From Clostridia bacterium (GTDB taxonomy: Bacteria; Bacillota; Clostridia; Christensenellales; Aristaeellaceae), in the NCBI GenBank assembly GCA_024404275.1, contig JAKSQG010000020.1, positions 1 to 18,539 on the forward strand: 18,539 nucleotides of DNA, read 5' to 3'. The translations under genes were made by a program, and so were the position numbers. The notes under the pieces were generated by a model. It saw only the letters and a program-made list of their open reading frames with translations. It searched no databases and was not told where the DNA came from. Of the stretch, positions 1 through 18,539 are shown one piece after another (within the stretch, counting starts at the first letter, position 1; every line of letters starts with the position of its first letter).

Positions 1-2347
1 TGTAGCCTTCCCAGGTCATGAAGCCGATCAGGGCGTTGCGGCCCAGAGCGATCTCACCATTCTCGGTAGAAGGACCGTCGGCCAGCAGATCGCCGACTTC
101 CACCTGCTGTCCCTGATCCACGCGGGGACGCTGGTTGATGCAGGTACCCTGGTTGGAACGGGCAAACTTGGTCAGCTTATAGCGATGACGCTCGCCGTTT
201 TCATCTTCAATCACGATCTGTTCGGCGTCCACATACTGCACAAAGCCGTTGTGCTTGCTCAGCAGTACGGCACCGGAGTCGTGGGCGGCCTTGTATTCCA
301 TACCTGTACCGACGATGGGAGATTCGGGCACCAGCAGCGGCACAGCCTGACGCTGCATGTTGGAACCCATCAGGGCGCGGTTGGCGTCGTCGTTCTCCAG
401 GAAGGGGATCATGGCGGTGGCCACGGAAATGACCTGACGGGGAGAAACGTCGACAAAGTCCACTTCGTTCACCGGCACAGCGATGATCTCATCGCGCCAG
501 CGGACGGTGACACGGTCGTTGACAAAGGTATTGTCGGCGGTCATGGGCTCCTTGGCCATGCCTACCTTGTAGGCGTCTTCCTCATCGGCGGTCATGTAGA
601 TGATCTCATCGGTCACCTGATTGGTTTCCTTGTTCACCTTGCGATAAGGAGCCTCGATAAAGCCGTATTCGTTGATGCGGGCGTAGCTGGCCAGAGAACC
701 GATCAGACCAATGTTGGGTCCTTCAGGCGTTTCAATGGGGCAGATACGGGCATAATGGGAATAGTGCACGTCGCGGACTTCCATGCCGGCACGGTCACGG
801 TTCAGACCGCCGGGGCCCAGAGCGGACAGACGGCGCTTGTGGGTCAGTTCGGCCAGCGGGTTGGGCTGATCCATGAACTGGCTCAGCTGAGAGGAGCAGA
901 AGAACTCCTTGATGGCGGCGCTGACAGGACGGATATTGATCAGGTCGTTGGGCTTGACATCGCTGTCGCCCTGGATGGCCATGCGTTCACGCACGACACG
1001 CTCCAGACGGGTCAGACCGATGCGCACCTGGTTCTGCAGCAGCTCACCCACAGAGCGCAGGCGGCGGTTGCCCAGATGGTCGATATCGTCAGTGGTGCCG
1101 ATGCCGTAGGGCATACCCAGCAGATAGCTGACGGAAGCGGTGATATCATCCACAATGATGTGCTTGGGCACGATGTTCTGGATGTTCTCACGGATGGCGC
1201 GCTTCATTTCTTCGGGGTCTTCGATACCTTCGATGGTACGCAGCAGGGTAGGCAGATGGGCTTTTTCATTGATGCCGGCATCCTTCGGATTGAAGGGCAG
1301 ATAGCAGGAGGCATCGACAAAGTTGTTGCCCACCACGCGCACCACGTGCTCACCGCCCATGATGTGCACCACGTTCAAGCCGGAGTTCTGGATATCGTTG
1401 GCCATTTCACGGCTGATGACACTGCCGGATTCGACCATGATCTCACCGGTCTGGGGATTGACGATGTCTTCCGCCGCCACCTGGCCGGTAATACGGGCAT
1501 TCAGGCCCAGCTTCTTGTTGTACTTATAGCGGCCCACGCGCATGAGGTCATAACGCTTGGGATCAAAGAACAGGTTGTTGATCAGCGTGCGGGCGCCGTC
1601 CTCCGTCGGAGGCTCACCGGGCTTCTGGCGCTTGTACACTTCGATCAGACCCTGGGACTGGTTCTTGGTGGAATCACCGTTGTTGATGGTGGCCAGCAGA
1701 CGTTCATCCTCACCCAGCAGACCGATGATATCGGAATCGGAGCTGTAGCCCAGGGCGCGCAGCAGCGTCGTCACGGGCAGCTTGCGGGCGCGGTCCACGC
1801 GGACCCACAGCACATCATTGGAGTCGGTTTCGTACTCCAGCCAAGCGCCGCGGTTGGGGATGATCTGGGCGGCATAGAGGTGCTTACCGGTCTTATCGAT
1901 GGTCTCGGAGAAGTAAGCGCCGGGAGAACGGACCAGCTGGCTGACGATAACACGCTCAGCGCCGTTGATCAGGAAGGTACCATGCTCCGTCATCAGCGGG
2001 AAATCACCCATGAAGACCTCGGTCTCCTTGATCTCTCCCGTCAGCTTGTTCTTAAGGCGCACAAACACCTTGAGAGGAGCGGCAAATGTCAGATCACGTT
2101 CCCTGCAGCGTTCGATGGAATTCTTGGGAGCGGAATCCAGTGAGTAATCCACAAATTCAAGTATAAGATTGCCGCTGTAATCCATGATGGGAGAAACATC
2201 GGCCAGCACCTCACGCAGTCCCTCTTCCAGGAACTGACGGTAGCTGTCCTTCTGTACCTCGATCAGGTTGGGCATATCCAGGACTTCATCGATGCGAGAG
2301 AAGCTCATGCGCTTGCAATGCTTCCCCATCTGAACCTCATGCACCAT
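1..2347 (-). CDS. rpoB: DNA-directed RNA polymerase subunit beta, N-terminal ~782 codons (3' end runs off the left edge)
   Basis: The reverse frame is open from ATG (2345-2347) to position 1. It is absent from the ORF track because there is no stop in the window. Hand translation gives [44 protein letters not shown]...[28 protein letters not shown]. Near position 1 it gives [56 protein letters not shown]. These are hallmark RpoB blocks. RBS AAAGGGGTG lies about 10 nt upstream. Confidence 0.97.
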
Positions 2348-2494
2348 AAAATGCAATCACCCCTTTACTGTTGCGAAGCAGTGGTTTTTGGCACTCGTTT
2401 TTGGCTGCCGGATTGTACTTTTTTTGTACTTTTTTTAAATCCTTGCCGCCACATGGTTAAAAACGGGTACATTAACCATACTGTAGCACCTTAT

Positions 2495-2523
2495 ACTATA
2501 TCATGTCAAATCGCAAGTGTCAA
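2495..2523 (-). promoter_or_regulatory. sigma-70/SigA-type promoter for rpoB
   Basis: The minus strand reads TTGACA (2523-2518), a 17-nt spacer, then TG-n-TATAGT (-10 at 2500-2495). This is a perfect -35 with an extended -10. It predicts a leader of roughly 140 nt before the rpoB ATG. Confidence 0.6.
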
Positions 2524-2556
2524 GCACATTTTTGGCATCCGGAGCACGAAAACGCA

Positions 2557-2598
2557 CAAAAAACGGAGCTGCGGGCTTTTGGCAGCCCCCACTCCGTT
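2557..2598 (-). terminator. intrinsic terminator after the deoD-DUF523 operon
   Basis: The minus strand reads AACGGAG-TGGGGGCTGCCAAAAGCCCGCAG-CTCCGTT followed by TTTTTT. It is a GC-rich imperfect hairpin with a 7-bp basal stem plus a U-run, about 35 nt after the DUF523 stop. Confidence 0.6.
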
Positions 2599-2633
2599 CA
2601 ATTTTGATTTTTGGTTTTTGGGGATTTCACTTT

Positions 2634-3068
2634 TCAGATGCTGAATTCCTTGGGAAGGTCCTCTTCCGTATAGACCCGGATGCCGTTTTGAAGCAGTTTT
2701 TCCGCCAGCACACCGCTGCCGGGAATCAGTTTCCGGCTGAAAGTGCCGTCATAAACGCTATCACGCCCGCACATGGGGCTGCGTGCCTTCAGAAGAGCCG
2801 CATCACACCCCGTCAGGCGGTACAGCTTGAACGCTTCCTCCGCTCCGCGCAGGTAGGCTTCCGTCCTGTTGCTTCCGTCCGCCGCGATGACGCTGTCCCC
2901 CGACCTTTCACAGGGAATGCGCGGTGTGGGCAGCCCGCCCAGCTGTTCCGGGCACACAGGCACCACTTCACATTTTTCGCTCAGCGCAGTCACAGCCGCG
3001 TTCTCCTTGCCGCATCCGTCGTAGCGGCAGCAGACACCCAGCAGGCAGGCACTTACCAGCAGCCGCAT
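2634..3068 (-). CDS. DUF523 family protein (TudS-like 2-thiouracil desulfurase family, [4Fe-4S] Cys ligands)
   Basis: 144 aa. The N-terminus MRLLVSACLLGVCCRYDG and the VCPEQLGGLPTPR block are the typical DUF523 signature. The start ATG shares its A with the deoD TGA (TGATG at 3066-3070). Confidence 0.85.
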   Translation of the reverse strand: MRLLVSACLLGVCCRYDGCGKENAAVTALSEKCEVVPVCPEQLGGLPTPRIPCERSGDSVIAADGSNRTEAYLRGAEEAFKLYRLTGCDAALLKARSPMCGRDSVYDGTFSRKLIPGSGVLAEKLLQNGIRVYTEEDLPKEFSI

Positions 3069-3775
3069 CAGGCGATCTCCAACGCGATCTCCATCATCTG
3101 GGTAAAGGTATTCTGGCGCTGCTCGGCATCCAGATTTTCACCGGTTACCAGATGATCGGAAATGGTCAGCAGCGTCAGGGCATTTTTACCCGCTTTGGCG
3201 GCATTCAGATACAGCGCATAGGTTTCCATTTCCACGCACAGAACACCCAGCTGCTGCAGGATGGCGCTGTCACTGGTCTCACCATAGAAGGTATCAGAAC
3301 TGAAGACCGGACCAACCGCCATGGGGATGCCCATCGCCTCCGCCTTTTGAGCTGCCGCGGACAGCAGCTTCCAGCTGGCGCAGGGCGCCAGATTGCCATG
3401 GAAACCAAACTGATTGCCGAAGCTCGAATTGGTGTAGGCAGACATCGCCCCCACCACGCTGCGCACCTTCAGGCTCTCCTGCATGGCTCCGGCAGAGCCG
3501 ATACGGATGATGTTGTCGACATCGTAGAAATTGAACAATTCGTAGGAATAAATACCAATAGAAGGAATGCCCATACCGGACGCCATCACGCTGACCTGTT
3601 TGCCGTTATATTCACCGGTATAACCCTGCACACCACGTACATTGTTGACCAGACGGGCATTTTTCAGGTAGGTTTCCGCTACAAACTTGGCGCGCAGCGG
3701 ATCGCCGGGCATCAAAACCGTCTTGGCAAAATCGCCGGGTTTGGCGCTATTATGAGGAGTAGGCGTTAAGCTCAT
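3068..3775 (-). CDS. deoD: purine nucleoside phosphorylase, DeoD type
   Basis: 235 aa. Contains PGDPLRAKFVAETYL, GMGIPSIGIYSYEL, IRIGSAGA, CVEMETYALY and TISDHL blocks characteristic of hexameric PNP. RBS GGAGG lies 8 nt upstream of the ATG. Confidence 0.95.
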   Translation of the reverse strand: MSLTPTPHNSAKPGDFAKTVLMPGDPLRAKFVAETYLKNARLVNNVRGVQGYTGEYNGKQVSVMASGMGIPSIGIYSYELFNFYDVDNIIRIGSAGAMQESLKVRSVVGAMSAYTNSSFGNQFGFHGNLAPCASWKLLSAAAQKAEAMGIPMAVGPVFSSDTFYGETSDSAILQQLGVLCVEMETYALYLNAAKAGKNALTLLTISDHLVTGENLDAEQRQNTFTQMMEIALEIA

Positions 3776-3808
3776 TTTTCAAGCCTCCGTATTTCTTTAT
3801 TTTTGTTT

Positions 3809-3837
3809 ATCGTATCACACCCTACCCGCTTCGTCAA
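3809..3837 (-). promoter_or_regulatory. candidate promoter for deoD
   Basis: The minus strand reads TTGACG (3837-3832), a 17-nt spacer, then TACGAT (3814-3809). Confidence 0.45.
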
Positions 3838-3847
3838 GCTGACTTTG

Positions 3848-3876
3848 TTGACGGCTGTTACCGTTTGTGATACCAT
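3848..3876 (+). promoter_or_regulatory. candidate promoter for the serine hydrolase gene (divergent from the deoD promoter)
   Basis: TTGACG (3848-3853), a 17-nt spacer, then TACCAT (3871-3876). Confidence 0.4.
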
Positions 3877-3907
3877 GTGCAAAACGATTTTGAAGGAGCA
3901 TGATCCG

Positions 3908-5338
3908 ATGATGAAAAGAGAACTGCTTGATGCCTCCTTTGTGCGCCGCGAAATGGCATGGTGGAATGTTCCCGGCGTACAGATCGGCGTTGTCCGAGCC
4001 GATTCCAACGGCAACCCCGAAACGCTTTACTCGTCGGGTTTTGGTTTCCGTGATGTTGAACATAATCTGCCCATGACACCCGATTCTCTCGGCGGCATCG
4101 CTTCCTGCTCCAAAGCTTTCACCGCCGCTATCGTTGCCTCCCTTGTGGAAGAAGGAAAACTCGATTGGGATCGTCCCATCCGCGAATATCTGCCGTTTTT
4201 TGCCCTGAAGGACCCTTTTGCCACTGCGGAATGTACCCTTCGGGATATGCTTTATCACCGTACCGGTATCGCGGGTCATGACGCTCTGTGGCCCAACCCC
4301 GATTGGTCCCGCCGCGATTATTTTGAACACGCCGCGCATATGACACCCAACAAGCCTTTCCGCAGTGTGGCACAATACAATAATACCATCTATAACCTGA
4401 TTGGAATGATTGCCGAGGAGGTCACCGGCGAAAGTTATGCCGATCTTCTGCGCACCCGCATTCTGGAGCCGCTTGAAATGACCCGCAGTTGCCTGACACT
4501 GCAGCACCAGCGTGCTGACACAGACTGGGCACGCGGTTATTTTTCCGAAGATATCGGCCCCGCTTCTCCCCTGCGCCCCATGGACGGTTGGGAGATGAGT
4601 CCGCTTGGAGATCCCGCCGCGGGCATTTACTCCTGTGCCTCAGAGATGACAAAATGGCTCACCCTGCATCTTTCCCGCGGTGTATATAAAGGAAAAAGAA
4701 TTTTCAGTACGGCCGTCATGGACGAGATGCATGAGCCTGCCCTGCGCATGAGCCCCTTTCCCTGGCGGTTTGAAGAGATCCCCGGCTACGGCTTCTATGG
4801 GATGGCATGGAAAACTGCCGTCTACCGTGGGCTTACCATGACCTATCACATGGGCGAAATCGAGGGCTACTGCTCCTCCACGGTCTTTTTCCCGCAGAAG
4901 GGACTTGGCATCTTTGTCCTCTGCAACCGTCATACCATGATGAGTCCCTTTTTGATGGAGCTTGTCTACACCGCCGCGGATGCCGCGCTCGGGTATGAAT
5001 CCCCGGACTGGGCAAATCGTCTGCATCCTTACGCACGGGATTTCAGCGGTCCCTGCGAGGCGTGGTCGCTTGACCTGATGCCCCATCCCACTTCCTCCCC
5101 TGCCGTGTTTGATGCGGATGATTATGCCGATTGTGCGGGCACCTATGTTTCCGATGTCTATGGTACACTGACCCTTCAGCACAGTGCCAACGGAAAAAGC
5201 GTCGGCGTGTCCTATATGCCGCTCGGCCGTGACCCTTCCCCCATTTCACTCTACCTTCGCTTCAAGGACTGGCTGCTGCCGCTCGAACCGGCTCCCGAAT
5301 GCGGCAGGGATGTCTTCCGCATCCGAAATTTCAAGTAG
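3908..5338 (+). CDS. serine hydrolase of the beta-lactamase/transpeptidase-like (class C / esterase EstB-like) family with a C-terminal lipocalin-like (DUF3471-type) domain. As read with code 11 it ends at TAG 5336-5338, but the frame stays open to TGA 5456-5458.
   Basis: SxxK active-site motif in GGIASCSKAFTAA. The downstream block YNNTIYNLIGMIAEEVTGESYADLL is typical of the family. The start is placed at ATG 3908 (RBS GAAGGAG 3892-3898) rather than the ORF-track start at 3803. There is no signal peptide. See the finding on the TAG at 5336. Confidence 0.85.
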   Translation: MMKRELLDASFVRREMAWWNVPGVQIGVVRADSNGNPETLYSSGFGFRDVEHNLPMTPDSLGGIASCSKAFTAAIVASLVEEGKLDWDRPIREYLPFFALKDPFATAECTLRDMLYHRTGIAGHDALWPNPDWSRRDYFEHAAHMTPNKPFRSVAQYNNTIYNLIGMIAEEVTGESYADLLRTRILEPLEMTRSCLTLQHQRADTDWARGYFSEDIGPASPLRPMDGWEMSPLGDPAAGIYSCASEMTKWLTLHLSRGVYKGKRIFSTAVMDEMHEPALRMSPFPWRFEEIPGYGFYGMAWKTAVYRGLTMTYHMGEIEGYCSSTVFFPQKGLGIFVLCNRHTMMSPFLMELVYTAADAALGYESPDWANRLHPYARDFSGPCEAWSLDLMPHPTSSPAVFDADDYADCAGTYVSDVYGTLTLQHSANGKSVGVSYMPLGRDPSPISLYLRFKDWLLPLEPAPECGRDVFRIRNFK

Positions 5339-5491
5339 GACACCCTTTTCTACACCGTCCCCCTGCAGTTTCTCCGGGATGGGAACGGCCGCATCACGGG
5401 CTTTGCTCTCAAAGCCGAACGTACCGTTCCCCCGGCCCTTTTCCGGCGCGTTTTCTGATTTTTTCACGCGGTTTCCGACATGTTTTTCATG

Positions 5492-5520
5492 TTGCATTCA
5501 GCCGCGGATTATCGTATAAT
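5492..5520 (+). promoter_or_regulatory. promoter for the GDPD-greA-lysS unit
   Basis: TTGCAT (5492-5497), a 17-nt spacer, then the consensus TATAAT (5515-5520). Confidence 0.55.
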
Positions 5521-5558
5521 ATAGAATGTATGTTTGTGTTTATGGGAAGGAGTGCGTC

Positions 5559-6428
5559 ATGGTTCTGTTCTGGCTTTTGTTCGTGCTCTTTCTGTTGTGC
5601 GCATTGTACATTTTTCTTGCGGCTCCCAACATTCACCGTCGGAAAATGAAGCTTCTCCCCCCGCCGCGTGTCTACTACGCGCACCGCGGGCTGCATGACG
5701 GCAACGTGCATGTAGCAGAGAATTCATTGCCCGCATTCCGCGCCGCGGCAGAGCTTGGTTACGGCATCGAGTTGGATGTACGGGAAACCCGTGACCATGT
5801 GCTGGTCGTCCACCACGATGAAACCCTCGAAAGAAGCTGCGGTGACAAACGCCCCGTTCGTGATGTACCATGGGCCGAGCTTTGCGAAATGCGCCTGTTC
5901 GGCACCGACGAGCACATTCCCACACTGGATGAGGTGCTGGCACTGGTTCACGGCCGTGTCCCGCTGATTATCGAAATCAAATCCGACCGGGGAGCTTCCG
6001 TTCCCTGTGAAGCCATTCGCGACCGGTTGCTGCGTTATCCGGGCAATTACTGCGTCGAGTCCTTCGATCCTTTCGTGCTGCGCTGGTTCAGGCACTTTGC
6101 CCCGCGCATCATCCGCGGTCAATTGTCCTGTGCTTTCAGCATCCCCGGCCTTTCCTTCAAGGAGCACCTGCAGCGTCTGGCTCTTACCAACCTGCTGACC
6201 AACTGTATCGCGCGTCCCGACTTCATCGCCTACGGTTATCAGACCGATGCGAATATCAGCTTCCGCTTGATCGCCTCCGTATTCCGTCCCATGCTTGCCG
6301 TCTGGACGGTACACGACGTTGAAAAAGCCCGTGAGCTGAAAAGCAGATATGATATACTGATATTTGAACGCTTTTATCCCACAGATGAAGGCTTCGATCA
6401 AGAGGAGGAACCATCTTATGTCCAGTAA
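5559..6428 (+). CDS. membrane-anchored glycerophosphodiester phosphodiesterase family protein
   Basis: GDPD motifs: YAHRGL, ENSLPAFRAAAELGYGIELDVRET, VVHHDETLER, IIEIK. The N-terminal hydrophobic helix is MVLFWLLFVLFLLCALYIFLAA. The start is placed at ATG 5559 (RBS GGAAGGAG with 6-nt spacing) rather than 5526. Confidence 0.85.
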   Translation: MVLFWLLFVLFLLCALYIFLAAPNIHRRKMKLLPPPRVYYAHRGLHDGNVHVAENSLPAFRAAAELGYGIELDVRETRDHVLVVHHDETLERSCGDKRPVRDVPWAELCEMRLFGTDEHIPTLDEVLALVHGRVPLIIEIKSDRGASVPCEAIRDRLLRYPGNYCVESFDPFVLRWFRHFAPRIIRGQLSCAFSIPGLSFKEHLQRLALTNLLTNCIARPDFIAYGYQTDANISFRLIASVFRPMLAVWTVHDVEKARELKSRYDILIFERFYPTDEGFDQEEEPSYVQ

Positions 6429-6909
6429 GAAAATCACCGCTTCCGGCCTGGAAGAACTGAAAAAGAAGCTGTATTACCTGGAGAACGATCGCCGCAACGA
6501 GATTCTGAAGGCCATCGAGATTGCAAAGGGCTTCGGCGACCTCAGTGAAAACGCCGAATACACCGCTGCCAGAGAAGACCAGTCCAAAAACGAGACCGAA
6601 ATCCTCGCCCTGAAAGAGGAAATCAATAATGCCGAAGTCATCGCCGACGAAGAGATCACCGGCGACAAGGTCAACCTCGGCACCACCGTCCGCATCCTGG
6701 ATCTGGAGCTGGACGAGGAAGAAGTCTACAGCATCGTCGGTACCCGTGAAGCCGATCCCATGAACAACAAGATTTCCCTGGAATCCCCCTACGGCATCGC
6801 CCTTGTGGGCAAGCGTGCAGGCGACGTTGTCACCGTGATCGCTCCCGACGGCGAATTCCAGCTCAAGATTCTGTCGATTGCCCGCACCGCCGATCAGGCG
6901 AAGGAGTAA
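6418..6909 (+). CDS. greA: transcription elongation factor GreA
   Basis: 163 aa. Starts MSSKKITASGLEELKKKL and contains GDLSENAEYTAAREDQ in the coiled-coil finger, plus the C-terminal globular domain block ISLESPYGIALVGKRAGDVV. RBS GAGGAGG. The gene overlaps the GDPD 3' end by 11 nt. Confidence 0.95.
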   Translation: MSSKKITASGLEELKKKLYYLENDRRNEILKAIEIAKGFGDLSENAEYTAAREDQSKNETEILALKEEINNAEVIADEEITGDKVNLGTTVRILDLELDEEEVYSIVGTREADPMNNKISLESPYGIALVGKRAGDVVTVIAPDGEFQLKILSIARTADQAKE

Positions 6910-6913
6910 ACGC

Positions 6914-8851
6914 ATGTCTGAAAACCAAGTCAAGACCGCTGCCGAGCTCAGCGAGCAGGAGCGCATCCGCCGCGATAAGCTGCAGGCTCTGATGGAAGCC
7001 GGCAGAAATCCCTTTGAGATCACCAAGTTCGATGTGACCCATCACAGCACCGACATTACCGAACATTTCCCCGAAATGGACGGCGTTCAAGTCACCATCG
7101 CCGGCCGCATGATGTTCAAGCGCGTCATGGGCAAGGCCAGTTTCTGCACGCTGCAGGATCTGAAAGGACGAATTCAGGTCTATGTCGCCCGGGATAATGT
7201 GGGTGAAGAAGACTACGCCGATTTCAAAAAATCCGATATCGGTGATATCTATGGTGTCTCCGGCGTTGTCTTCCAGACCCGCACCGGAGAGATCTCCGTT
7301 CATGCGGAAAAAATTGTGCTGCTGACCAAGTCCCTCAAGCCGCTGCCCGAAAAGTTCCACGGCCTGACCGATACCGATACCCGCTATCGTCAGCGTTATG
7401 TGGACCTGATCATGAATCCCGAGGTAAAGGATACCTTCATCAAACGCAGCCTGATCATCAAGGAGATCCGCAAATTCCTGGATGGACGCAACTTCATCGA
7501 GGTGGAAACGCCCACCCTGGTCAGTAACGCAGGCGGTGCCGCTGCCCGCCCCTTCGAAACCCATTACAATGCCCTGGACGAAGATGTTAAGCTGCGCATC
7601 TCTTTGGAATTGTACCTCAAGAGACTGATCGTCGGCGGTCTGGAGCGTGTTTACGAAATCGGCCGCGTGTACCGCAACGAAGGTGTGGACACCCGTCACA
7701 ATCCTGAGTTCACCCTGATGGAACTGTATCAGGCCTACACCGATTATGAGGGCATGATGGAGCTGACCGAAAGCATGTTCCGTCATCTGGCGCAGACGGT
7801 CATCGGTTCCACCCGCTTCAGCTATAACGGAATTGAGATCGATTTCGGCAAGCCCTTTGAGCGTCTGACCATGAACGCCGCCATCCTGAAGTATGCCGGT
7901 GTGGACTTCGACGCCGTGGCTACCGATGAAGAAGCCAAGGCTTTGGCCAAGGAGCATCACATCGAATTTGAAGCGCGCCACACCAAGGGCGACATCGTGA
8001 ACCTCTTCTTCGAAGAGTATTGCGAAAAGAACCTGATCCAGCCCACCTTCATCATGGATCACCCGCTGGCCATCTCTCCCCTGACCAAGAAGAAGCCCTC
8101 CGATCCCACCAAAGTAGAACGCTTCGAGCTGTTCTGCAACACTTGGGAAATGTGCAACGCTTACTCCGAGCTGAACGACCCCATCGACCAGCGTGAGCGT
8201 TTTGCCCAGCAGGATGCCAATGCCGCCGCGGGAGATGAAGAAGCCCAGCACACCGATGAGGACTTCCTCAACGCACTGGAAGTCGGTATGCCCCCCACCG
8301 GCGGTATCGGCTATGGTATCGACCGTCTGGTGATGCTGCTGACAGACAGCGCCGCCATCCGCGATGTGCTGCTCTTCCCCACCATGAAGTCTCAGGGCAC
8401 GGCAAAGAACGAAGCCAACAACGCCGCGCAGGCGATCGCCGCTGCCCCCGCAGCCCCGGTTGCGGAAGAAAAGATCGATTTCAGCAAGGTGGAGATCGAG
8501 CCGCTGTTTGCCGATTATGTTGATTTCGACACCTTCAGCAAGAGCGATTTCCGCGCCGTAAAGGTGAAGGCTTGCGAAGCCGTAAAGAAGAGCAAAAAGC
8601 TGCTTCAGTTCACCCTGGATGACGGCACCGGCACCGACCGCACCATTCTTTCCGGCATTCATGCTTTCTATGAGCCGGAAGAGCTGGTTGGAAAGACCCT
8701 GCTCGCCATCACCAACCTGCCGCCCCGCCCCATGATGGGCATCGAATCCTGCGGCATGCTGATCTCCGCGATCCATACCGAGGAAGGCGAAGAAAAGCTG
8801 CATCTGCTGATGCTGGATAACCACATTCCGGCCGGCGCCAAGATGTACTGA
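6914..8851 (+). CDS. lysS: lysine--tRNA ligase (class II) with an extra C-terminal Trbp111/EMAPII-like tRNA-binding domain
   Basis: Class II motifs are present: FIEVETP, ERVYEIGRVYRNEGVDTRHNPEFT and GGIGYGIDRLVMLL. RBS GAAGGAG sits 4 nt after the greA stop. The last ~130 aa (DFRAVKVKACEAVKKSKKLLQFTLDDGTG...SGIHAFYEPEELVGKTLLAITNLPPRPMMGIESCGMLIS) match the OB-fold tRNA-binding domain known from the MetRS C-terminus, CsaA and Trbp111. Confidence 0.97.
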   Translation: MSENQVKTAAELSEQERIRRDKLQALMEAGRNPFEITKFDVTHHSTDITEHFPEMDGVQVTIAGRMMFKRVMGKASFCTLQDLKGRIQVYVARDNVGEEDYADFKKSDIGDIYGVSGVVFQTRTGEISVHAEKIVLLTKSLKPLPEKFHGLTDTDTRYRQRYVDLIMNPEVKDTFIKRSLIIKEIRKFLDGRNFIEVETPTLVSNAGGAAARPFETHYNALDEDVKLRISLELYLKRLIVGGLERVYEIGRVYRNEGVDTRHNPEFTLMELYQAYTDYEGMMELTESMFRHLAQTVIGSTRFSYNGIEIDFGKPFERLTMNAAILKYAGVDFDAVATDEEAKALAKEHHIEFEARHTKGDIVNLFFEEYCEKNLIQPTFIMDHPLAISPLTKKKPSDPTKVERFELFCNTWEMCNAYSELNDPIDQRERFAQQDANAAAGDEEAQHTDEDFLNALEVGMPPTGGIGYGIDRLVMLLTDSAAIRDVLLFPTMKSQGTAKNEANNAAQAIAAAPAAPVAEEKIDFSKVEIEPLFADYVDFDTFSKSDFRAVKVKACEAVKKSKKLLQFTLDDGTGTDRTILSGIHAFYEPEELVGKTLLAITNLPPRPMMGIESCGMLISAIHTEEGEEKLHLLMLDNHIPAGAKMY

Positions 8852-8919: not shown

Positions 8920-8946
8920 CAAAATCTGTCAGGAAGTAATCTGCCA

Positions 8947-11149: not shown

Positions 11150-11170
11150 CAAATACAAGGAGCGTGCGTC

Positions 11171-11599
11171 ATGTATTATTCCCCGCTTGTCCTCAAAGCC
11201 AGCCGCATCATGTTTGAAGCCCATCGGAACGATGTCGACAAAGGCGGCTACCCCTATGTATTCCATCCCTATCATCTGGCTTCTCAGATGGACGATGAAG
11301 CCTCAGTGTGCGTGGCGCTCCTTCACGATGTCATCGAAGACCATTCTGACCTGTACAGCTTTGAATCGTTGCGATAGGAAGGCTTCGGCGAAGATATTCT
11401 GACAGCGTTGAAGCTGCTGACCCATCCGGCGGGCGTTCCCTATATGGATTACATCCGGCTGATTGCCGAAAACCCCATTGCAAAGAAAGTCAAGATGGCC
11501 GACCTTGAACACAATATGGATACCCGAAGGGTCGGCAACGTCAAAACCAGGAAATACGATACCTATGTTGAAGCGCTCAATTACCTGCAGAACAGCTGA
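11171..11599 (+). pseudogene. HD-domain (RelA/SpoT-type hydrolase fold, small-alarmone-hydrolase-like) gene interrupted by a single in-frame TAG at 11375-11377
   Basis: Track ORFs 11171-11377 and 11408-11599 are in the same frame. Read through, the sequence is ...VALLHDVIEDHSDLYSFESLR-TAG-EGFGEDILTALKLLTHPAGVPYMDYIRLIAENPIAKKVKMADLEHNMDTRR..., one continuous HD_4-like domain (HD...ADLxHN). The second ORF's 'M' is really a TTG Leu codon inside TALKLL. It is a pseudogene under code 11; an alternative reading is given in the findings. Confidence 0.75.
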
Positions 11600-11610
11600 A
11601 TTCAAATCAA

Positions 11611-11651
11611 AAGGACCCGCCGATGAGAATCACTTCTCAAGGCGGGTCCTT
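11611..11651. terminator. bidirectional intrinsic terminator between the HD gene and lrgB (convergent)
   Basis: AAGGACCCGCC (11611-11621) pairs with GGCGGGTCCTT (11641-11651). An inner GAGAA-TCAC-TTCTC helix lies between them. The element is A-rich upstream and T-containing downstream. Confidence 0.7.
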
Positions 11652-11662
11652 AACTTATTCTG

Positions 11663-12355
11663 TTACAGCAGCTGTGCAAACAGCGGGGCTACGACCACCG
11701 TCAGCAAGCCGGCAACGGCAATGGACAGGCTGCTCATGGCGCCTTCCGTTTCACCCATCTGCATCGCACGGGCGGTGCCTACAGCATGGGAGGCGGAACC
11801 GATGGCAATGCCCTTGGCAATCGGCTCAGTGATGCGGAACAGTCGGCACAGCATCGGCGCTGTGATGTTACCCAGCAAGCCGGTCACAATGATCGAAGCC
11901 ACGGTCAGGGTGACATTGCCTCCCAGCTCCTCGGACACGCCCATACCGATGGCCGTTGTGATGGATTTGGGCAGCAGCGTCACATAGGCGGTATGGCTGA
12001 TACGCAGCAGTGCCCCCAACGCCAGAATGCACACCATGGTGGTCAGCACGCCGGTCAGAATGCCCAGCAGGATGGCTTTGGCATTCTTCTTCAGCAGCCC
12101 CAGCTTTTCATACAGCGGAAGCGCCAGACAAATGGTGGCGGGAGTCAGCAGATAGCTCAGATACTTGGCTCCGGCATTGTAACCATCATAAGGAATTTGG
12201 AAGACCGCCAGCAGCACCATTGTCAGCACGATGGCCACAAGCAAGGGATTAAACAGCGGAAAGCGCGTCTTTTTATACAGAATCGCACCGGCCTGATAGG
12301 CCAGCAGACTGACTGCCAGACCGAAGAATGCGGACGTACTCACAAAGGCACTCAT
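11663..12355 (-). CDS. lrgB: LrgB/CidB family membrane protein
   Basis: 230 aa and polytopic. Contains the family signature GIAIGSASHAVGTARAMQMGE. ATGA overlap with lrgA. Confidence 0.85.
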   Translation of the reverse strand: MSAFVSTSAFFGLAVSLLAYQAGAILYKKTRFPLFNPLLVAIVLTMVLLAVFQIPYDGYNAGAKYLSYLLTPATICLALPLYEKLGLLKKNAKAILLGILTGVLTTMVCILALGALLRISHTAYVTLLPKSITTAIGMGVSEELGGNVTLTVASIIVTGLLGNITAPMLCRLFRITEPIAKGIAIGSASHAVGTARAMQMGETEGAMSSLSIAVAGLLTVVVAPLFAQLL

Positions 12356-12714
12356 ACCTGTTCCTCCTTGCTCTTCTTTTCAGCGCGGATCACTGCCTGC
12401 GTGACAAGGCCGGAAGCACCGAACACCAGTGCAGTGGAAACCACAATGATGATCAGCATTGGCACAAGGTCAGCCGTGTTTCCGGATTCCAGAAGGCCCA
12501 CCGCCGCCGGGATAAACATCATCGGCATGATCTCTATCAAAAAGGATGCCGTTTCGCGGATCTGTTCCGGCTTGATGATTTTCAAGCAAAGAGCGATCAG
12601 CAGCAGCAGCATACCATAGATACTGCCCGGAACAGGCAGCGGGATCAGGTAATGCAATCCTTCTCCAATCAGGGCAAGCAGCGTAATGATGCTGAACTGC
12701 CGGACGATCTTCAT
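12352..12714 (-). CDS. lrgA: LrgA/CidA holin-like family membrane protein
   Basis: About 120 aa with 4 predicted TM segments. Contains LPVPGSIYGMLLLLIAL. The start is placed at ATG 12714 (RBS AGGAGG 7 nt upstream). The track start at 12720 is a TTG. Confidence 0.8.
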   Translation of the reverse strand: MKIVRQFSIITLLALIGEGLHYLIPLPVPGSIYGMLLLLIALCLKIIKPEQIRETASFLIEIMPMMFIPAAVGLLESGNTADLVPMLIIIVVSTALVFGASGLVTQAVIRAEKKSKEEQV

Positions 12715-12737
12715 GTCCAAGCCTCCTAATCTGTCAA

Positions 12738-13826
12738 TCAGAGCATCTGATAAACCGCTTCATGCAGGCGGGCCAGGCTTTCCTCACCCGGGGCTACATA
12801 GGGAGAATCGATCAGATACGCCTCGATCTTCGCCATATTCTCATCGGTACCGGGGATGCCCAGCTCTTCCCAGGTCAGGGGCATATCCATGCCGCGCATG
12901 AACTCCTTCAGGGCTTCCTTCTCGGCGCTCAGCTGATTGTAATGCAGCTGGGCAAACAGGCCGACCGCCACGATCTCGCCATGCAGCGCCTGGCTGGCTT
13001 CCTTGGTGAAGAGCGTACGCACGCCGTCATACATGGAATGGGCAATGGCGGACTGGCTGAAGCTCTTGGTAATGTTGGCGATCACACCGGTCACGGCAAT
13101 GTTGATGAAGATCACATCCTCCAGCGCCTTGGTGACCTGATGATGACGGTTGTCTTCAATGGCCTGAGGGCCAAACTTTTCCAGCACCTCATAGGTGTAT
13201 TCAGCCATACGGAAAGCGGTGAACAGGTCATACTTGTTCTCCTCCAGACGCATCACGGGCTTGCCGTTCTGAATCTCAATGCGCTTGGCCATGGCATCCA
13301 GGATACCGGCGGCGTTGTAACGGATGGGGCAATCGGCGATGACCTGAGAGTCCACCAGCACAGCGTCCAGCTCATGCTCATAACGCCAGCAATCCAGCTT
13401 GCCGCCTTCGGGGGTGTACATCACGCTCATGCAGGTAAAAGGAGCGCAGGTGGACATGGAGGTGGGCACATTTACCACGCCCACACCGGCGTATTCCGCC
13501 ACAGCCTTGGCAAAGTCCATGATTTTGCCGCCGCCCACACCGATGACCTCGTCGCAGCCCATTTCCTTGCACTTATCGGCATATTCCTTGGCGCTCTCAT
13601 AGCTGCACCAGCCTTCGTAGATGGCTACTTCATAACGCACTTCGGCCTTTTCCAGGCTGGCGGTCAGACGGTCCTTCACAGCAGCAAAGGCACGGGGACC
13701 CGCCACGATCATCACATGCTTGCCAAAGCGTGCAACCTCACCGCCGACTTCCTCCAGAATGCCAACGCCCTGACGATAACGGCCGGCGCCGAACTTGATC
13801 GCAGTGTCCAGTACAATACGCTCCAT
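12738..13826 (-). CDS. iron-containing alcohol dehydrogenase superfamily protein, glycerol dehydrogenase (GldA)-like
   Basis: 362 aa. Contains GVGGGKIMDFAKAVA (NAD-binding loop) and putative metal ligands in AAGILDAMAK, AIAHSMYDG and ALHGEIVAVG. The start is placed at ATG 13826 (RBS GGAGGG). The upstream 31 codons of the track ORF have no RBS. Confidence 0.85.
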   Translation of the reverse strand: MERIVLDTAIKFGAGRYRQGVGILEEVGGEVARFGKHVMIVAGPRAFAAVKDRLTASLEKAEVRYEVAIYEGWCSYESAKEYADKCKEMGCDEVIGVGGGKIMDFAKAVAEYAGVGVVNVPTSMSTCAPFTCMSVMYTPEGGKLDCWRYEHELDAVLVDSQVIADCPIRYNAAGILDAMAKRIEIQNGKPVMRLEENKYDLFTAFRMAEYTYEVLEKFGPQAIEDNRHHQVTKALEDVIFINIAVTGVIANITKSFSQSAIAHSMYDGVRTLFTKEASQALHGEIVAVGLFAQLHYNQLSAEKEALKEFMRGMDMPLTWEELGIPGTDENMAKIEAYLIDSPYVAPGEESLARLHEAVYQML

Positions 13827-13871
13827 AATTGATTCCCTCCTGCAGCTTTGCTGCGGTATTTTGTTGAATCG

Positions 13872-13912
13872 ATTATAAATCGCTTTCACGGACATTTCCA
13901 CAGGTTGTCCGT
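13872..13912 (-). promoter_or_regulatory. candidate promoter of the dehydrogenase-lrgAB unit with a 7-bp inverted repeat bracketing the -35
   Basis: On the minus strand, TATAAT lies at 13877-13872 and TGGAAA at 13900-13895, with a 17-nt spacer. ACGGACA (13888-13894) and TGTCCGT (13906-13912) flank the -35 hexamer. Confidence 0.35.
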
Positions 13913-13963
13913 TTTTCAAACTTGTATGGTATGTTTATTTCAATTTCAGACAAATTTGTATGT

Positions 13964-14698
13964 TCATTTATCTGTCTGCAGATTGGTCCTGCTTCGGATG
14001 AACCTTTCACGGATAACGCTCAGATGATACTGCATCAGGTCATAGGCATCCGCTCCTCGACGGTCCGCAATGGCTTCCGCAATGCGGCGATGCTCCACTG
14101 CGGTATCCTCCCTTCGCTTTCTGGGAGCAATCCGGGCTGTCAGGCGCTGCATCTGATGAATATAGGGAATCAGGTTTGGCACCACCAGATTACCGCTGCA
14201 ATTGGCAATGGCCTGATGAAACTCCATATCCTTCTGCACATACCCCTGTCCGGAAGCCACCAGCTTATCAAACTCATCGCAGATGTGCATCAGCACTTCC
14301 ACATCATGACGTCTGGCATTCTGTGCCGCCAGCAAGGCGCATTTGGGTTCAATCAGCATACGCATGTCCAACAGGTCCAGCGCCAGCTTGCTTTTGTCAT
14401 AGATCACGCTCAGCCCCAGCGGATCATATTCTGTTTCATTCTCTTTCCGAAAATCCGCCACAAAGGTCCCCGAACCGCGTTCGGTATACACGATCCCGCG
14501 TTCCCGCAGGATACCCAGCGCCAGGCGCAGTGTGGAACGGCTGACTTCAAATCGTTCAGCCAGTTCCGGCTCATTGGGCAGTTTCGCCCCCACACGATAG
14601 TTTTCGCTGTGCAGCATATTGATCAGCGTGTCTGCCGTTCTTTCCGGCAGGGATTTGCGGTTAACAGGATCTCTCGGGTTTTGCACAATAAACCTCAC
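13964..14698 (-). CDS. GntR family transcriptional regulator, FadR subfamily (FCD C-terminal domain)
   Basis: The winged HTH is LPNEPELAERFEVSRSTLRLALGILRERGIVYTERGSGTFV. The C-terminal half is all-helical. The GTG start at 14698 overlaps the LysR stop (GTGA). GTG 14686 with GAGG 6 nt upstream is an equally plausible start. Confidence 0.9.
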   Translation of the reverse strand: MRFIVQNPRDPVNRKSLPERTADTLINMLHSENYRVGAKLPNEPELAERFEVSRSTLRLALGILRERGIVYTERGSGTFVADFRKENETEYDPLGLSVIYDKSKLALDLLDMRMLIEPKCALLAAQNARRHDVEVLMHICDEFDKLVASGQGYVQKDMEFHQAIANCSGNLVVPNLIPYIHQMQRLTARIAPRKRREDTAVEHRRIAEAIADRRGADAYDLMQYHLSVIRERFIRSRTNLQTDK

Positions 14699-15579
14699 AT
14701 TCTCACACGGTCATAGATCTCCGGCGGCAGGTTTCGAATCAGGCGGATGACCGATTTCAGTTCCGGCTTCGGGTTATTTTTCAGCCAAGCGATGCCAATG
14801 TTCACCTGTCGGTGGAAGCAAAGCGGTCTGTAGACCAGACCTTTGAGGATCAGCAGGGGAATATTGGTAATCAATACACCTTTCCCCTGCACGATATCGG
14901 GACAGATCTGCTGATAAGGCCTTTCTTCCGGATACAGTGTCAGCTGATGCATGGCCACATATGCTTCAAAATCCTGCCGGAATCCGGTATTGTCGACATA
15001 GGGAAATATCACCGTGTCCTTCAGTTGTTCCGGGGTAATCTCTTTTTCCTGCGCCAATCGTGTGTTTTCGCCGGTGCATACATAGATGGTGCCTTCCCTC
15101 AGATTCGCGCTTCCAATGCGGGGATCCTGCAGCTCTTTATGGCCGACATCGCAGAAGACAATATCCATCCTCCCGCTCAGCAGCAGTTGTTTGTCATCAC
15201 TTTCCGGTGGAATCAGGGCGGAGACACGATTATCAGCCTCCGCCATGATGGCCATATAAGCCTTGCAATTCCCCTGCAGCATATTATCCGGGAAGCCGAT
15301 CACCACGAGGCCCTGGCGTTCCGCAAACGTTCTCATGGCCTTTTTTGCATCCATATGGGCTTTGAGTATCTTCTTTGCTTCCGGCATAAAAGCTCTGCCC
15401 GCCTCTGTCAGCAGCGCACGGTTGGCCGTTCGTTCAAAAAGGGCAATGCCAAGATCCTCTTCCAGTTTTTTCAGTCTGTGCGTCACTGCCGGCTGGGAAA
15501 TAAACAGTTTTTCCGCTGCGGCATTGATGCCGCCAAATTCCACCGTCGCCGTAAAAGCTTCCAGCTGTTCCGTTGTCAT
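14695..15579 (-). CDS. LysR family transcriptional regulator
   Basis: 294 aa. N-terminal HTH is LEAFTATVEFGGINAAAEKLFISQPAVTHRLKKLEEDLGIALFER, followed by a substrate-binding-fold C-terminus. RBS GAGGTGA. Confidence 0.93.
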   Translation of the reverse strand: MTTEQLEAFTATVEFGGINAAAEKLFISQPAVTHRLKKLEEDLGIALFERTANRALLTEAGRAFMPEAKKILKAHMDAKKAMRTFAERQGLVVIGFPDNMLQGNCKAYMAIMAEADNRVSALIPPESDDKQLLLSGRMDIVFCDVGHKELQDPRIGSANLREGTIYVCTGENTRLAQEKEITPEQLKDTVIFPYVDNTGFRQDFEAYVAMHQLTLYPEERPYQQICPDIVQGKGVLITNIPLLILKGLVYRPLCFHRQVNIGIAWLKNNPKPELKSVIRLIRNLPPEIYDRVRM

Positions 15580-15596
15580 CAGCTCACCTCTGATTC

Positions 15597-15623
15597 ATTA
15601 TACCATAAATTTTGTTTATGGTA
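15597..15623. promoter_or_regulatory. LTTR-type dyad (T-N11-A containing) overlapping the extended -10 of the LysR gene promoter
   Basis: A perfect 9-bp inverted repeat: TACCATAAA (15601-15609), 5 nt, TTTATGGTA (15615-15623). The minus strand reads TGGTATAAT (15605-15597), an extended -10 about 18 nt before the LysR ATG. Confidence 0.55.
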
Positions 15624-15640
15624 GCATCAAGCTGTTCAAT

Positions 15641-15669
15641 TTGCTTCTTTTTTCTGTCCGTTTTATGAT
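15641..15669 (+). promoter_or_regulatory. candidate promoter of the secreted-protein gene
   Basis: TTGCTT (15641-15646), a 17-nt spacer, then TATGAT (15664-15669). The dyad centre at about 15612 lies roughly 60-65 bp upstream of the predicted start site. Confidence 0.45.
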
Positions 15670-15713
15670 AGAAAATGAGCCGGATGGCTTAATATTTTAT
15701 TCGGAGGATGTTT

Positions 15714-16358
15714 ATGAAAAAGCTCCTTTCCATCGTTCTCGTGCTGATGCTCCTGTCCCTGTCCGCCGTTTCCCTGGCTGAAACCGTGGACGCCTACACC
15801 AGTGCCTCGCTGACCAAGTCCTATGTTGAGGGCGATGCTGCCGCCGCGCTGGCTCAGATTCTGGAAAACAGCGGCTCGGATATCGCCACTGCCGCCCAGG
15901 CTGCCGCTCCCGATTATGTTCGCGAGTATGGCAAGCATGTGCTCATCATGTCCGTCAATCCCGATGGCTGCCCCGGCATGTCCACCATTGGCTACTGGCG
16001 TTACTGCAATAACCGTGCCGGCGGCCGCGCTGTGACCATTACCGCCGGTGACTGGCAGTTCAACAGCCGCGGCGAAGGTGCCGACCAGCTGGTTGCCCAG
16101 CTGACCGAAGGTCAGAACGCCCTGAACCTTTACAATGCGGGCATTGGTGCCGGTTCCACGGTTGTTATCTCTCTTGATGATGGTGTGTACATGATCCATC
16201 TGCGTGTGGCCGATATCTTTGTTCAGAAGTTTGACGCTGCCGCCTACGAAGCCGGCGAGTTCGCCAAAGGCTACTCCGGCGCCGACCGTCAGGCCAGCTC
16301 CTTCTACTTCGTCTTCGATGTGCTCAGCATCGAAAAATCCAATCAGATCATGCTGTAA
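15714..16358 (+). CDS. secreted protein of unknown function (Sec signal peptide, no lipobox)
   Basis: RBS GGAGG lies 6 nt before ATG 15714. The signal peptide is MKKLLSIVLVLMLLSLSAVSLA/ETV. The gene has its own promoter and terminator. I recognise no family for it. The mature N-terminus carries VDAYTSASLT. Confidence 0.7.
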   Translation: MKKLLSIVLVLMLLSLSAVSLAETVDAYTSASLTKSYVEGDAAAALAQILENSGSDIATAAQAAAPDYVREYGKHVLIMSVNPDGCPGMSTIGYWRYCNNRAGGRAVTITAGDWQFNSRGEGADQLVAQLTEGQNALNLYNAGIGAGSTVVISLDDGVYMIHLRVADIFVQKFDAAAYEAGEFAKGYSGADRQASSFYFVFDVLSIEKSNQIML

Positions 16359-16367
16359 TTCTCCCGC

Positions 16368-16398
16368 AAAAAAGGACTGCCGAAAGGCAGTCCTTTTT
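16368..16398. terminator. bidirectional intrinsic terminator (convergent genes)
   Basis: AAAAAA-GGACTGCC (16374-16381), GAAA loop, GGCAGTCC (16386-16393), then TTTTT. Confidence 0.85.
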
Positions 16399-16410
16399 GA
16401 TTGTTCAGTA

Positions 16411-17637
16411 TTATTCTGCGACCGTCTGCGCTTTCAGCTCAGCCAGCGCGTCGGTGTCGCACACCATTTCCACCTTCTCAGCCCAGGCACCCATCTGAGC
16501 GGAATAGGCATTGTTGGCAGCGTTGCCGATCAGGTATTCCTCGATCTCAGCATGAATATCATCGGTCATGATCAGGCCGCCGGGAATGTCCCGCAGATAA
16601 TAGACCACATAGATGCCATAATCGCCCACGCTCGGGTTGCTCCAGTCGCCGGGCTGGTTCATGCGCTCATCAAACGCAGCAGCGATGAATTGCGGGTCGT
16701 AGATGATGCTCTCACGGTGAACGGCGTAGCCTTCAGCCAGGTTGGTCTCATCTTCCATGCCGGGATCGATGTTGTATTCCTTGATCAGTTCCAGCCAGCT
16801 GCCGCCGTTTGCCATCGTGGTGTTGATCGCGTCGATGGCCTCCTGACGGGACGCAACGCAGGCCGCAGCCGCGGCATCCACCGCTGCTTTGTTCGCTTCG
16901 GTAGCTTCGGTTTCATAAGCCTCAGCAGCCTCTGCGTAAGCATTCAGCAGGCTTTCATCCACCTCAAGCAGAATCTGCAGCACACCGCGATAACCCTCGG
17001 GCATATACCAGCTTTCATAGCCATAGTACTGGGTATAGAACTCATGCATGCCCACATCTGCATACATCGCCGCATACTGAGCACCAACCTCATTGAAAAC
17101 GGCCTGAATCTCGTCCTCGGTGGGCACATAGCCGCCCGTCATATCGGCGTCCAGCTTTTCCCAAGCTGCCTGCATCTTCAGGTTTTCCAGAAGACCGGCT
17201 TCGCTATAGCCGTTGCTTTCGTAGTATGCCGCAGCCTGTTCACGAAGCACGGCACGAGCTTCCGCGGTATCCTCGGACAGATAATACTCCACATAACTGT
17301 TCAGGGCATCTTCCCATTCCCGGGCAGCTTCGTTGGCGAAAGCAGCTTCTTCTTCAGCCGTAAAGTTGAGATAGCCGGCATCCACCAGATGGCTTTCAAT
17401 CACGCCCTGTTCATAAAGATACTCAATCGTATAATCGTAATCGGGATAGGTCTCGACATAGCCGTAGTTGTACAGCTGATAAGCCATATTGTCCAGATAA
17501 TCCGCACTGTATTCCTTACCATTGACCGTCAGAATGATGCGGCTCATGTCAAAGGTGTTTTCTGCCAGTGCCACACCGGCGGACAGCAGCATCATCAGCG
17601 CCACCAGCAGCGCCAGGGTACGTTTCAACAGATTCAT
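16411..17637 (-). CDS. secreted PrsA/SurA-like foldase (SurA-N-like region plus a parvulin-type PPIase-like domain)
   Basis: The signal peptide is MNLLKRTLALLVALMMLLSAGVALA/EN. The ILTVNGKEYSADYL segment resembles the SurA N-terminal region. The C-terminal region YRGVLQILL...GGSWLELIKEYNIDPG...DPQFIAAAF...PGDWSNPSVGDYGIYVVYY aligns by eye with the parvulin fold. The start is placed at ATG 17637; the track start at 17640 is a TTG. Confidence 0.7.
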   Translation of the reverse strand: MNLLKRTLALLVALMMLLSAGVALAENTFDMSRIILTVNGKEYSADYLDNMAYQLYNYGYVETYPDYDYTIEYLYEQGVIESHLVDAGYLNFTAEEEAAFANEAAREWEDALNSYVEYYLSEDTAEARAVLREQAAAYYESNGYSEAGLLENLKMQAAWEKLDADMTGGYVPTEDEIQAVFNEVGAQYAAMYADVGMHEFYTQYYGYESWYMPEGYRGVLQILLEVDESLLNAYAEAAEAYETEATEANKAAVDAAAAACVASRQEAIDAINTTMANGGSWLELIKEYNIDPGMEDETNLAEGYAVHRESIIYDPQFIAAAFDERMNQPGDWSNPSVGDYGIYVVYYLRDIPGGLIMTDDIHAEIEEYLIGNAANNAYSAQMGAWAEKVEMVCDTDALAELKAQTVAE

Positions 17638-17672
17638 CAAAAGTTCCTTCCTTTCAAGTGGTTGTTGATTGT

Positions 17673-17701
17673 ATTATCGCACATTCGCGGTTGCTCCGCA
17701 A
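17673..17701 (-). promoter_or_regulatory. candidate promoter for the PrsA-like gene
   Basis: The minus strand reads TTGCGG (17701-17696), a 17-nt spacer ending in TGC, then GATAAT (17678-17673). Confidence 0.5.
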
Positions 17702-17791
17702 GAACTTTGGGTAAAATGTTACACTCCGTCCATATTTGGGCAGTGCTGAAGATTGCAATCAAACCGTTCTTCCGTTATAATAAGAATGGAT

Positions 17792-18232
17792 TTATATCCG
17801 CCGGGATTGGAAAAACGCTGTCAGCATCGCACTGCATTCCGCTTCCATCACGCCGCCAATGCAGCGCACCCGATGATAAAACGCGCTGTCCTGCGGCAGG
17901 TGATAGACGCTTCCGCAGCAGCCCTGTCGGGCATCCCACGCGCCAAACACGCATGCTTCCAGCTCTGCCATCATCATGGCTCCCGCGCACATGGGGCAAG
18001 GCTCCAGTGTCACGTACATCGTGCAGCCGTGAAGCCGACGCACCTGAAGCACTTCGCAGGCGCGCTGCATGGCCAGCATTTCCGCGTGTGCAAAGGGAGC
18101 ATTGTTTTTCTCCCGCTCATTGCGCGCGGAAGCAATGATTTTTCCGTCTTTGACAATTACGGCACCCACGGGGACATCTTCCCGGCAGGCGGCAGCCATT
18201 TTGAGGGCTTCTGCCATCCATTTTTCTTCCAT
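17792..18232 (-). CDS. tadA: tRNA adenosine(34) deaminase
   Basis: 146 aa. Contains the CDA-fold zinc motifs HAEMLAM and LEPCPMCAGAM, with the typical N-terminus WMAEALKMA. Confidence 0.95.
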   Translation of the reverse strand: MEEKWMAEALKMAAACREDVPVGAVIVKDGKIIASARNEREKNNAPFAHAEMLAMQRACEVLQVRRLHGCTMYVTLEPCPMCAGAMMMAELEACVFGAWDARQGCCGSVYHLPQDSAFYHRVRCIGGVMEAECSAMLTAFFQSRRI

Positions 18233-18296
18233 CTTCGATTCATTCCTTTCACCCTATGATAACATGCCAAACTCAAAAGAACAAGGAGACATTCCC

Positions 18297-18539
18297 ATGA
18301 ACGACGTTATGAGCATCATTTCTTCCCGCCGCAGTCATCGTGCCTACAAACCCGACGCCGTCACTCCCGAGCAGCTGCAGACGTTGATTGACGCTTTCCT
18401 GGCTTCCCCTTCCGCCGTCAACAAGCAGCCCTGGCATCTTTCTGTGGTTACCAATCAGCAGCTGCTGGATGAGATGCACGCTGAGATGATCGCCAACATG
18501 ATGAAGGCCGCCCCCGAAAGCCGCAGCCCCCGTCTGGCT
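18297..18539 (+). CDS. nitroreductase family protein, N-terminal 81 codons (runs off the right edge)
   Basis: RBS AAGGAGA lies before ATG 18297. Hand translation gives MNDVMSIISSRRSHRAYKPDAVTPEQLQTLIDAFLASPSAVNKQPWHLSVV, which has the RRS.R and N.QPW nitroreductase signatures. It is absent from the track because there is no stop in the window. Confidence 0.8.
   Translation, partial: MNDVMSIISSRRSHRAYKPDAVTPEQLQTLIDAFLASPSAVNKQPWHLSVVTNQQLLDEMHAEMIANMMKAAPESRSPRLA

Follow-up and report, generated by a model that had tools for sequence, protein, structure and literature searches.

Two in-frame TAG codons in a Clostridia contig are best explained as independent nonsense substitutions under the standard genetic code

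Does TAG still mean stop in the bacterium that carries contig JAKSQG010000020.1? This 18,539-nt stretch of an uncultured, gut-type Clostridia genome (assembly GCA_024404275.1, family Aristaeellaceae), which we analyzed over its full length and call the window, contains two reading frames that are interrupted by TAG and then continue with recognizable protein sequence: one encodes an S12-family serine hydrolase, the other a protein with an HD_4 domain. An earlier sequence-only reading had found no gene in the window that ends at a credible TAG, and offered suppression or reassignment of UAG, two amber pseudogenes, or sequence errors as explanations. We find that the bacterium very probably uses the standard bacterial code, with two independent single-base amber nonsense substitutions in accessory genes. 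The best explanation is that the HD allele represents a strain-level loss-of-function polymorphism and the hydrolase a species-wide C-terminal truncation. The features concerned are as follows.

3908..5338, plus strand: S12 (class C beta-lactamase-like) serine hydrolase, truncated frame, 476 codons to the TAG (MCQ2453409.1)
5336..5338, plus strand: in-frame TAG of the hydrolase, in its C-terminal lipocalin-like domain
5339..5460, plus strand: post-TAG tail of the hydrolase, 39 sense codons and a TGA
11171..11377, plus strand: N-terminal half of the HD gene, 68 codons and the TAG (MCQ2453416.1, MJ136_02390)
11375..11377, plus strand: in-frame TAG of the HD gene, at a variable Lys/Arg/Asn/Glu position
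11378..11599, plus strand: C-terminal half of the HD gene, in frame with the first half and terminated by TGA

Read through its TAG, the HD frame encodes a 142-residue HD_4/SpoT-hydrolase-like protein. The Pfam HD_4 match spans the TAG, and NCBIfam reports a match to TIGR00691 (SpoT/RelA N-terminal). More than 1,000 full-length homologs of 142-150 amino acids are known, and their alignment continues across the TAG. NCBI annotates positions 11408-11599 as a separate 63-residue protein, MCQ2453417.1 (MJ136_02395). The column occupied by the TAG is poorly conserved: Lys is found in the nearest intact relative (94% identical), and Asn, Arg, Glu, Ala or Gln elsewhere.

Close relatives carry a sense codon at this site, an outcome that the sequence-only reading had tied to ordinary pseudogenes. 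The conspecific locus L005, which is 97.3% identical to the window over 5.5 kb of nucleotide sequence, has CGG AAG opposite the window's CGA TAG. Locus L006 likewise has AAG, one base from TAG, and the sister species represented by L008 (~89-90% identity) has CAG CGC. The TAG is present in four haplotypes, namely the window, L001 (99.84% identical to the window), and L039 and L040 (both 98.6%), and the gene is intact in P0001/L005, L006, P0365 and L008. Because the conspecific carries AAG and the sister species CGC, the HD TAG arose within the species, where it is polymorphic, by a single A-to-T change from AAG (Lys) to TAG. The stop falls at residue 69 of 142, past the H...HD motif and ahead of the conserved residues K108, D111, H114 and N115. 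The mutant allele would thus encode a single-domain protein cut in half, consistent with loss of function.

The surrounding DNA has a history of its own. Between 11000 and 11617, a segment that takes in the final part of dus together with the HD gene, the window diverges from L005 by ~11%, as against ~2% in the preceding 5 kb; synonymous divergence (dS) is 0.30-0.42 in this segment vs 0.03-0.15 in those 5 kb. At the HD locus, a divergent allele seems to have been imported by recombination.

The hydrolase matches Pfam Beta-lactamase over residues 31-355 (E = 2.9e-56). Its Ser-x-x-Lys catalytic motif is SCSK, and S77 and K80 are invariant in the hydrolase alignment. The TAG lies outside this Pfam match and inside a conserved C-terminal domain, in a region where most homologs have PF11954. 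The claim that both TAGs interrupt conserved domains therefore stands for the HD gene and, as regards the C-terminal domain, for the hydrolase; it does not extend to the Beta-lactamase match. Within the C-terminal domain, the TAG takes the place of the Glu in the conserved motif L-K-E-D-T-L-F (E in 13/16 and M in 3/16 full-length homologs), 40 codons ahead of the family-typical C-terminus. The 39-residue tail aligns with the end of the conserved domain no less well than the preceding part of the protein does, and the earlier observation that homology continues past both TAGs is thus borne out. The nearest intact homologs are 57% identical, and a conspecific intact form was not found in our protein search.

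An AlphaFold model of one 57%-identical homolog (P0122; predicted local distance difference test score, pLDDT, 94.4) places the TAG site at the end of a strand comprising residues 467-475. The barrel has ~8 strands, of which three (478-488, 494-499 and 508-512) come after this site. The solved structures that match best belong to S12 enzymes whose C-terminal domain is lipocalin-like: 2qmi, 7spn, 6ksu and 1ei5.

All three sampled haplotypes (the window, L004 and L038) carry the hydrolase TAG, and these haplotypes differ by 1.6-2.2%, with L004 97.8% and L038 98.4% identical to the window. Mismatches of L004 flank the TAG, one 10 nt upstream and another 67 nt downstream. These closely flanking variants indicate that the hydrolase TAG is old and part of a diverged haplotype. 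A recent recombination patch, considered as the source of the shared TAG, is ruled out by the same variants.

We compared the hydrolase of the window with that of L004 over 491 upstream codons and counted 23 synonymous and 11 nonsynonymous changes. The resulting ratio of nonsynonymous to synonymous substitution rates (dN/dS) is 0.137, similar to that of dus (0.11) and other neighbours. Among the variant codons of the three haplotypes, the catalytic part shows 9 nonsynonymous and 27 synonymous changes, and codons 401-486 of the broken C-terminal domain show 6 and 3 (Fisher p = 0.04). Judged by these substitutions, the hydrolase is not a decaying pseudogene, and its catalytic domain is under purifying selection; the crippled C-terminal domain, by the same pattern, seems to be under relaxed constraint. 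Most likely, the hydrolase is truncated yet still used. In the post-TAG tail, the three haplotypes differ by three synonymous changes and one nonsynonymous change, with no frame damage; four changes are too few to interpret.

Overall, we propose that a Glu codon of the hydrolase, 40 codons ahead of its usual terminus, mutated to TAG, and that under the standard code translation would stop there. The protein would keep its catalytic domain intact and lose three of the ~8 strands of its C-terminal barrel. The purifying selection seen on the catalytic part suggests that this shortened form is probably still used, which would make the hydrolase a natural and apparently tolerated truncation of a C-terminal domain.

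At the other end of the gene, a 3-nt indel lies at positions 3907-3909, where the hydrolase begins with ATG ATG (Met-Met) in the window and with a single Met in L004 and L038. The annotated products are accordingly 476 residues long in the window vs 475 in the L004 and L038 haplotypes. A scan for promoters and terminators around 5300-5560 found nothing.

We rebuilt the gene map of the window from open reading frames (ORFs), Pfam, NCBIfam and a codon-usage gene caller, and these sources reproduced the map of the earlier reader. When both interrupted frames are taken as read through, 18 genes end in the window, 12 at TGA, 6 at TAA and none at TAG, exactly as first counted. TAG is in frame at only two places in 5,808 sense codons, also as first reported: 5336-5338 in the S12 hydrolase and 11375-11377 in the HD_4 gene. 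The remaining ORFs that end at TAG lie antisense to genes with strong Pfam matches and are shadows of them.

To judge the count of terminators, we validated the codon-usage gene caller on the window and then ran it on 28 related Clostridia loci. TAG ends 42 of 374 genes (11%) across these loci, and 8 of 127 (6%) in those with at least 50% G+C; the window itself has ~55% G+C. In the nearest relative by RpoB, which retains the gene order deoD-DUF523-rpoB-rpoC, 1 of 25 terminators is TAG by the collection's own gene calls. Locus L035, from a family-level relative found via the HD protein, has none among 10, and several loci of 12-16 genes from ordinary genomes likewise lack a TAG terminator. With a TAG share of terminators in related genomes of ~3-11%, the probability of finding none among 18 is ~0.12-0.5 (0.12 at a share of 11%, 0.31 at 6% and 0.48 at 4%). 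Of the single-base changes that could turn a codon of the window's genes into a stop, 49.5% yield TAG, 37% TAA and 13.5% TGA, because AAG, GAG and CAG are common codons; the probability that both nonsense codons are TAG is thus ~0.25. The sequence-only reading had also pointed to a shared TAG GA context. This context is present at both sites (AAG TAG GAC at 5333-5341 and CGA TAG GAA at 11372-11380), and is no special signal, since GA follows both TAGs because the next conserved residues are Asp and Glu. The stop-codon pattern is within chance: TAG is the rarest terminator in this lineage, and its absence is no evidence of an altered meaning.

If UAG were decoded as an amino acid, whether by a suppressor tRNA(CUA), a pyrrolysine system or a reassignment with loss of release factor 1 (RF1), both proteins would be made at full length. 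Such decoding would fit the absence of TAG among 18 terminators and the rarity of TAG terminators in the nearest relatives. It would also fit the two intact and homologous downstream frames, and a hydrolase TAG that is fixed in three haplotypes with a dN/dS of 0.14 upstream and a 3:1 ratio of synonymous to nonsynonymous changes downstream. The HD codon argues against it, being AAG in a conspecific and CGC in the sister species. So do the aligned residues: homologs carry Lys, Arg or Glu codons where the window has TAG, and the two sites align with different residues, a conserved Glu in the hydrolase and a variable Lys/Arg in the HD protein, contrary to what one new codon meaning predicts. The many in-frame TAGs across conserved genes that reassignment predicts are not seen, with none in rpoB, lysS, greA, dus, tadA or the other window genes. 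ARAGORN found no tRNA gene in the 18.5-kb window, the Pfam map of the window shows no pyl gene, and neither affected gene encodes a methylamine methyltransferase. The 125 nt past each TAG have no unusual fold when compared with shuffled sequence (z = -0.20 for the hydrolase and +0.50 for the HD gene), and we found no read-through structure or pyrrolysine insertion sequence (PYLIS)-like structure after either TAG. With the terminator count also within chance, the earlier suggestion of UAG suppression or reassignment gained no positive support, and we consider such decoding very unlikely. Known bacterial stop reassignments all involve UGA and none UAG, and domain models aligned over the in-frame stops of pseudogenes are a recognized source of false stop reassignments (Shulgina and Eddy 2021, PMC8629427). 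Partial decoding, for example by a suppressor tRNA(CUA) from a TAG-recoded prophage, would let amber codons be tolerated or even maintained in chromosomal genes, and would explain how the hydrolase, a gene under purifying selection whose conserved tail is still intact, comes to have a fixed TAG; we hold it to be highly improbable.

Full-length hydrolase could also arise under the standard code and without a dedicated suppressor, through low-level near-cognate read-through of UAG, with the tail kept by selection. Purifying selection on the hydrolase despite its old TAG is consistent with this idea, as are a tail that remains open with three synonymous changes and one nonsynonymous change, and a barrel that is incomplete without the three tail strands. 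However, bacteria usually read through a UAG spontaneously at rates well under 1%. Ahead of the TAG, the C-terminal domain seems to be under relaxed constraint (6 nonsynonymous and 3 synonymous changes), no structure that promotes read-through is found, and the four tail changes have no statistical power. We regard near-cognate read-through as unlikely. The chance that an error of sequencing or assembly produced either TAG is virtually nil. The contig does come from a metagenome-assembled genome, but independent assemblies from other samples bear both TAGs (L001, L039 and L040 for the HD gene, L004 and L038 for the hydrolase) and differ from the window at neighbouring sites; moreover, the L004 variants 10 nt and 67 nt from the hydrolase TAG fall within one 141-mer of it. 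These assemblies refute the suggestion of sequence errors. Two nonsense substitutions remain the best fit, and of the earlier proposal of two amber pseudogenes, the independent mutations hold, while the hydrolase, under purifying selection, is not decaying. Some observations weigh against this conclusion. The closest relatives, too, have few TAG terminators (1/35), the hydrolase TAG is fixed in three haplotypes under purifying selection, which read-through predicts as well, and the 3:1 ratio of tail changes hints weakly at constraint (p ~0.05-0.1, varying with transition bias). In the TAG-bearing HD haplotypes, changes number 6 synonymous vs 2 nonsynonymous, counts so tiny that neither decay nor constraint could be recognized from them; several synonymous states of these haplotypes are common to intact alleles and may stem from recombination.

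If true, UAG decoding in a free-living member of the Clostridia would be the first bacterial amber reassignment, or the first natural chromosomal suppression, outside the pyrrolysine system. Two ordinary nonsense alleles, to which the evidence points, have modest practical value. The locus illustrates how recoding can be mimicked when in-frame stops of young pseudogenes or truncated alleles coincide with a small sample of genes.

The gene map on which the terminator count is based reads as follows, with coordinates or gene ends, strand where assigned, and stop codon.

Off the left window end: rpoB, N-terminal part
2634-3068, minus strand: 2-thiouracil desulfurase/DUF523, TGA
3068-3775, minus strand: PNP/deoD, TGA
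Ends 5460, plus strand: S12 hydrolase frame, read through, TGA
Ends 6428: GDPD, TAA
Ends 6909: greA, TAA
6878-8851, plus strand: lysS, TGA
Ends 9264: TfoX_N protein, TGA
Ends 10196: Asparaginase_2 protein, TGA
Ends 11149: Dus, TGA
Ends 11599, plus strand: HD frame, read through, TGA
11663, minus strand: LrgB, TAA
12352, minus strand: LrgA, TGA
12738-13919, minus strand: Fe-ADH (GldA-like), TGA
13964, minus strand: GntR regulator, TGA
14695, minus strand: LysR regulator, TGA
15708-16358, plus strand: signal-peptide protein, TAA
16411, minus strand: PrsA-like protein, TAA
17792, minus strand: tadA, TAA

In a collection of 5.8 billion proteins, the closest other full-length RpoB is 85% identical, which indicates sparse sampling of the lineage. 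Searches for further conspecific sequence with the exact Dus, tadA and partial RpoB proteins gave no matches. Look-ups of LrgB, deoD, P0121, P0001, P0362, P0364 and P0367 returned only contigs of 1-5.7 kb within the span of the window, and added no new genes of the species to the stop-codon count. A scan of genome contigs with the Fe-ADH protein led to the sister species L008 (~90% nucleotide identity) and to many distant taxa. Protein searches that included the Joint Genome Institute (JGI) found no JGI match above 67% identity.

Several neighbouring genes show features of their own. The Fe-ADH protein (12738-13919, minus strand) has relatives at 73-80% identity in the distant genera Parolsenella, Blautia, Coprococcus and Roseburia, and at 58% in Erysipelotrichaceae. 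The nearest relative of RpoB stands at only 85%, and the Fe-ADH gene looks horizontally mobile. The lysS product (6878-8851, plus strand) carries an additional tRNA_bind (Trbp111/EMAP-like) domain at its C-terminus (residues 559-655), an architecture also found in the relatives L005 and L035. Where the window has the LysR regulator and the signal-peptide protein (14671-16369), L008 has ~140 bp (2621-2760), so that this region appears to be a small accessory insertion or deletion between the two species. Two ORFs overlap on opposite strands at 15663-16358, and neither has a Pfam match. The plus-strand ORF (15708-16358) begins with a signal-peptide-like MFMKKLLSIVLVLMLLSLSAVSLA and has a codon-usage score of 97, vs 4.5 for its counterpart. 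At the right window edge, a minus-strand ORF of 89 codons (18273-18539, ending at TGA) has a negative codon-usage score and no Pfam match, and is probably not a gene; a plus-strand frame is open from 18048 to the window end.

We compared the locus with known systems. Pyrrolysine decoding, which relies on pylT, pylS and pylBCD and occurs in Desulfitobacterium, Acetohalobium and Bilophila, resembles it in having in-frame UAGs in conserved proteins, a Bacillota-type genome and homology downstream. It differs in that the window genes are not mtmB, mtbB or mttB, that the window UAGs are not conserved in orthologs (which have Lys, Arg or Glu), and that the window holds no pyl gene or tRNA. Gut phages that read TAG as Gln (code 15-like, with a suppressor tRNA) share the affected amber codon, and gut Clostridia host such phages. 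Unlike these phages, the window is chromosomal (rpoB, lysS, greA, dus, tadA), has two TAGs in 5,808 codons, aligns them with Glu and Lys/Arg in place of Gln, and contains no phage genes or tRNAs. Among solved S12 hydrolases, Pab87 'CubicO' (2qmi), the esterase IS11 (7spn), SurE (6ksu) and a D-aminopeptidase (1ei5) share with our hydrolase the two-domain fold and the Ser-x-x-Lys motif; the sequence identity is ~20%, and the window allele would lack the last three barrel strands. The locus most resembles nonsense alleles and young pseudogenes in bacterial populations. As in these, the HD TAG is one base from the AAG of relatives, the hydrolase TAG is one base from GAG, if GAG was the ancestor, the genes hit are accessory, one of them is polymorphic among conspecific strains, and the NCBI annotation treats their products as shortened or split. 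Unlike young pseudogenes, the hydrolase behaves as a shortened functional variant, with its catalytic domain still under purifying selection.

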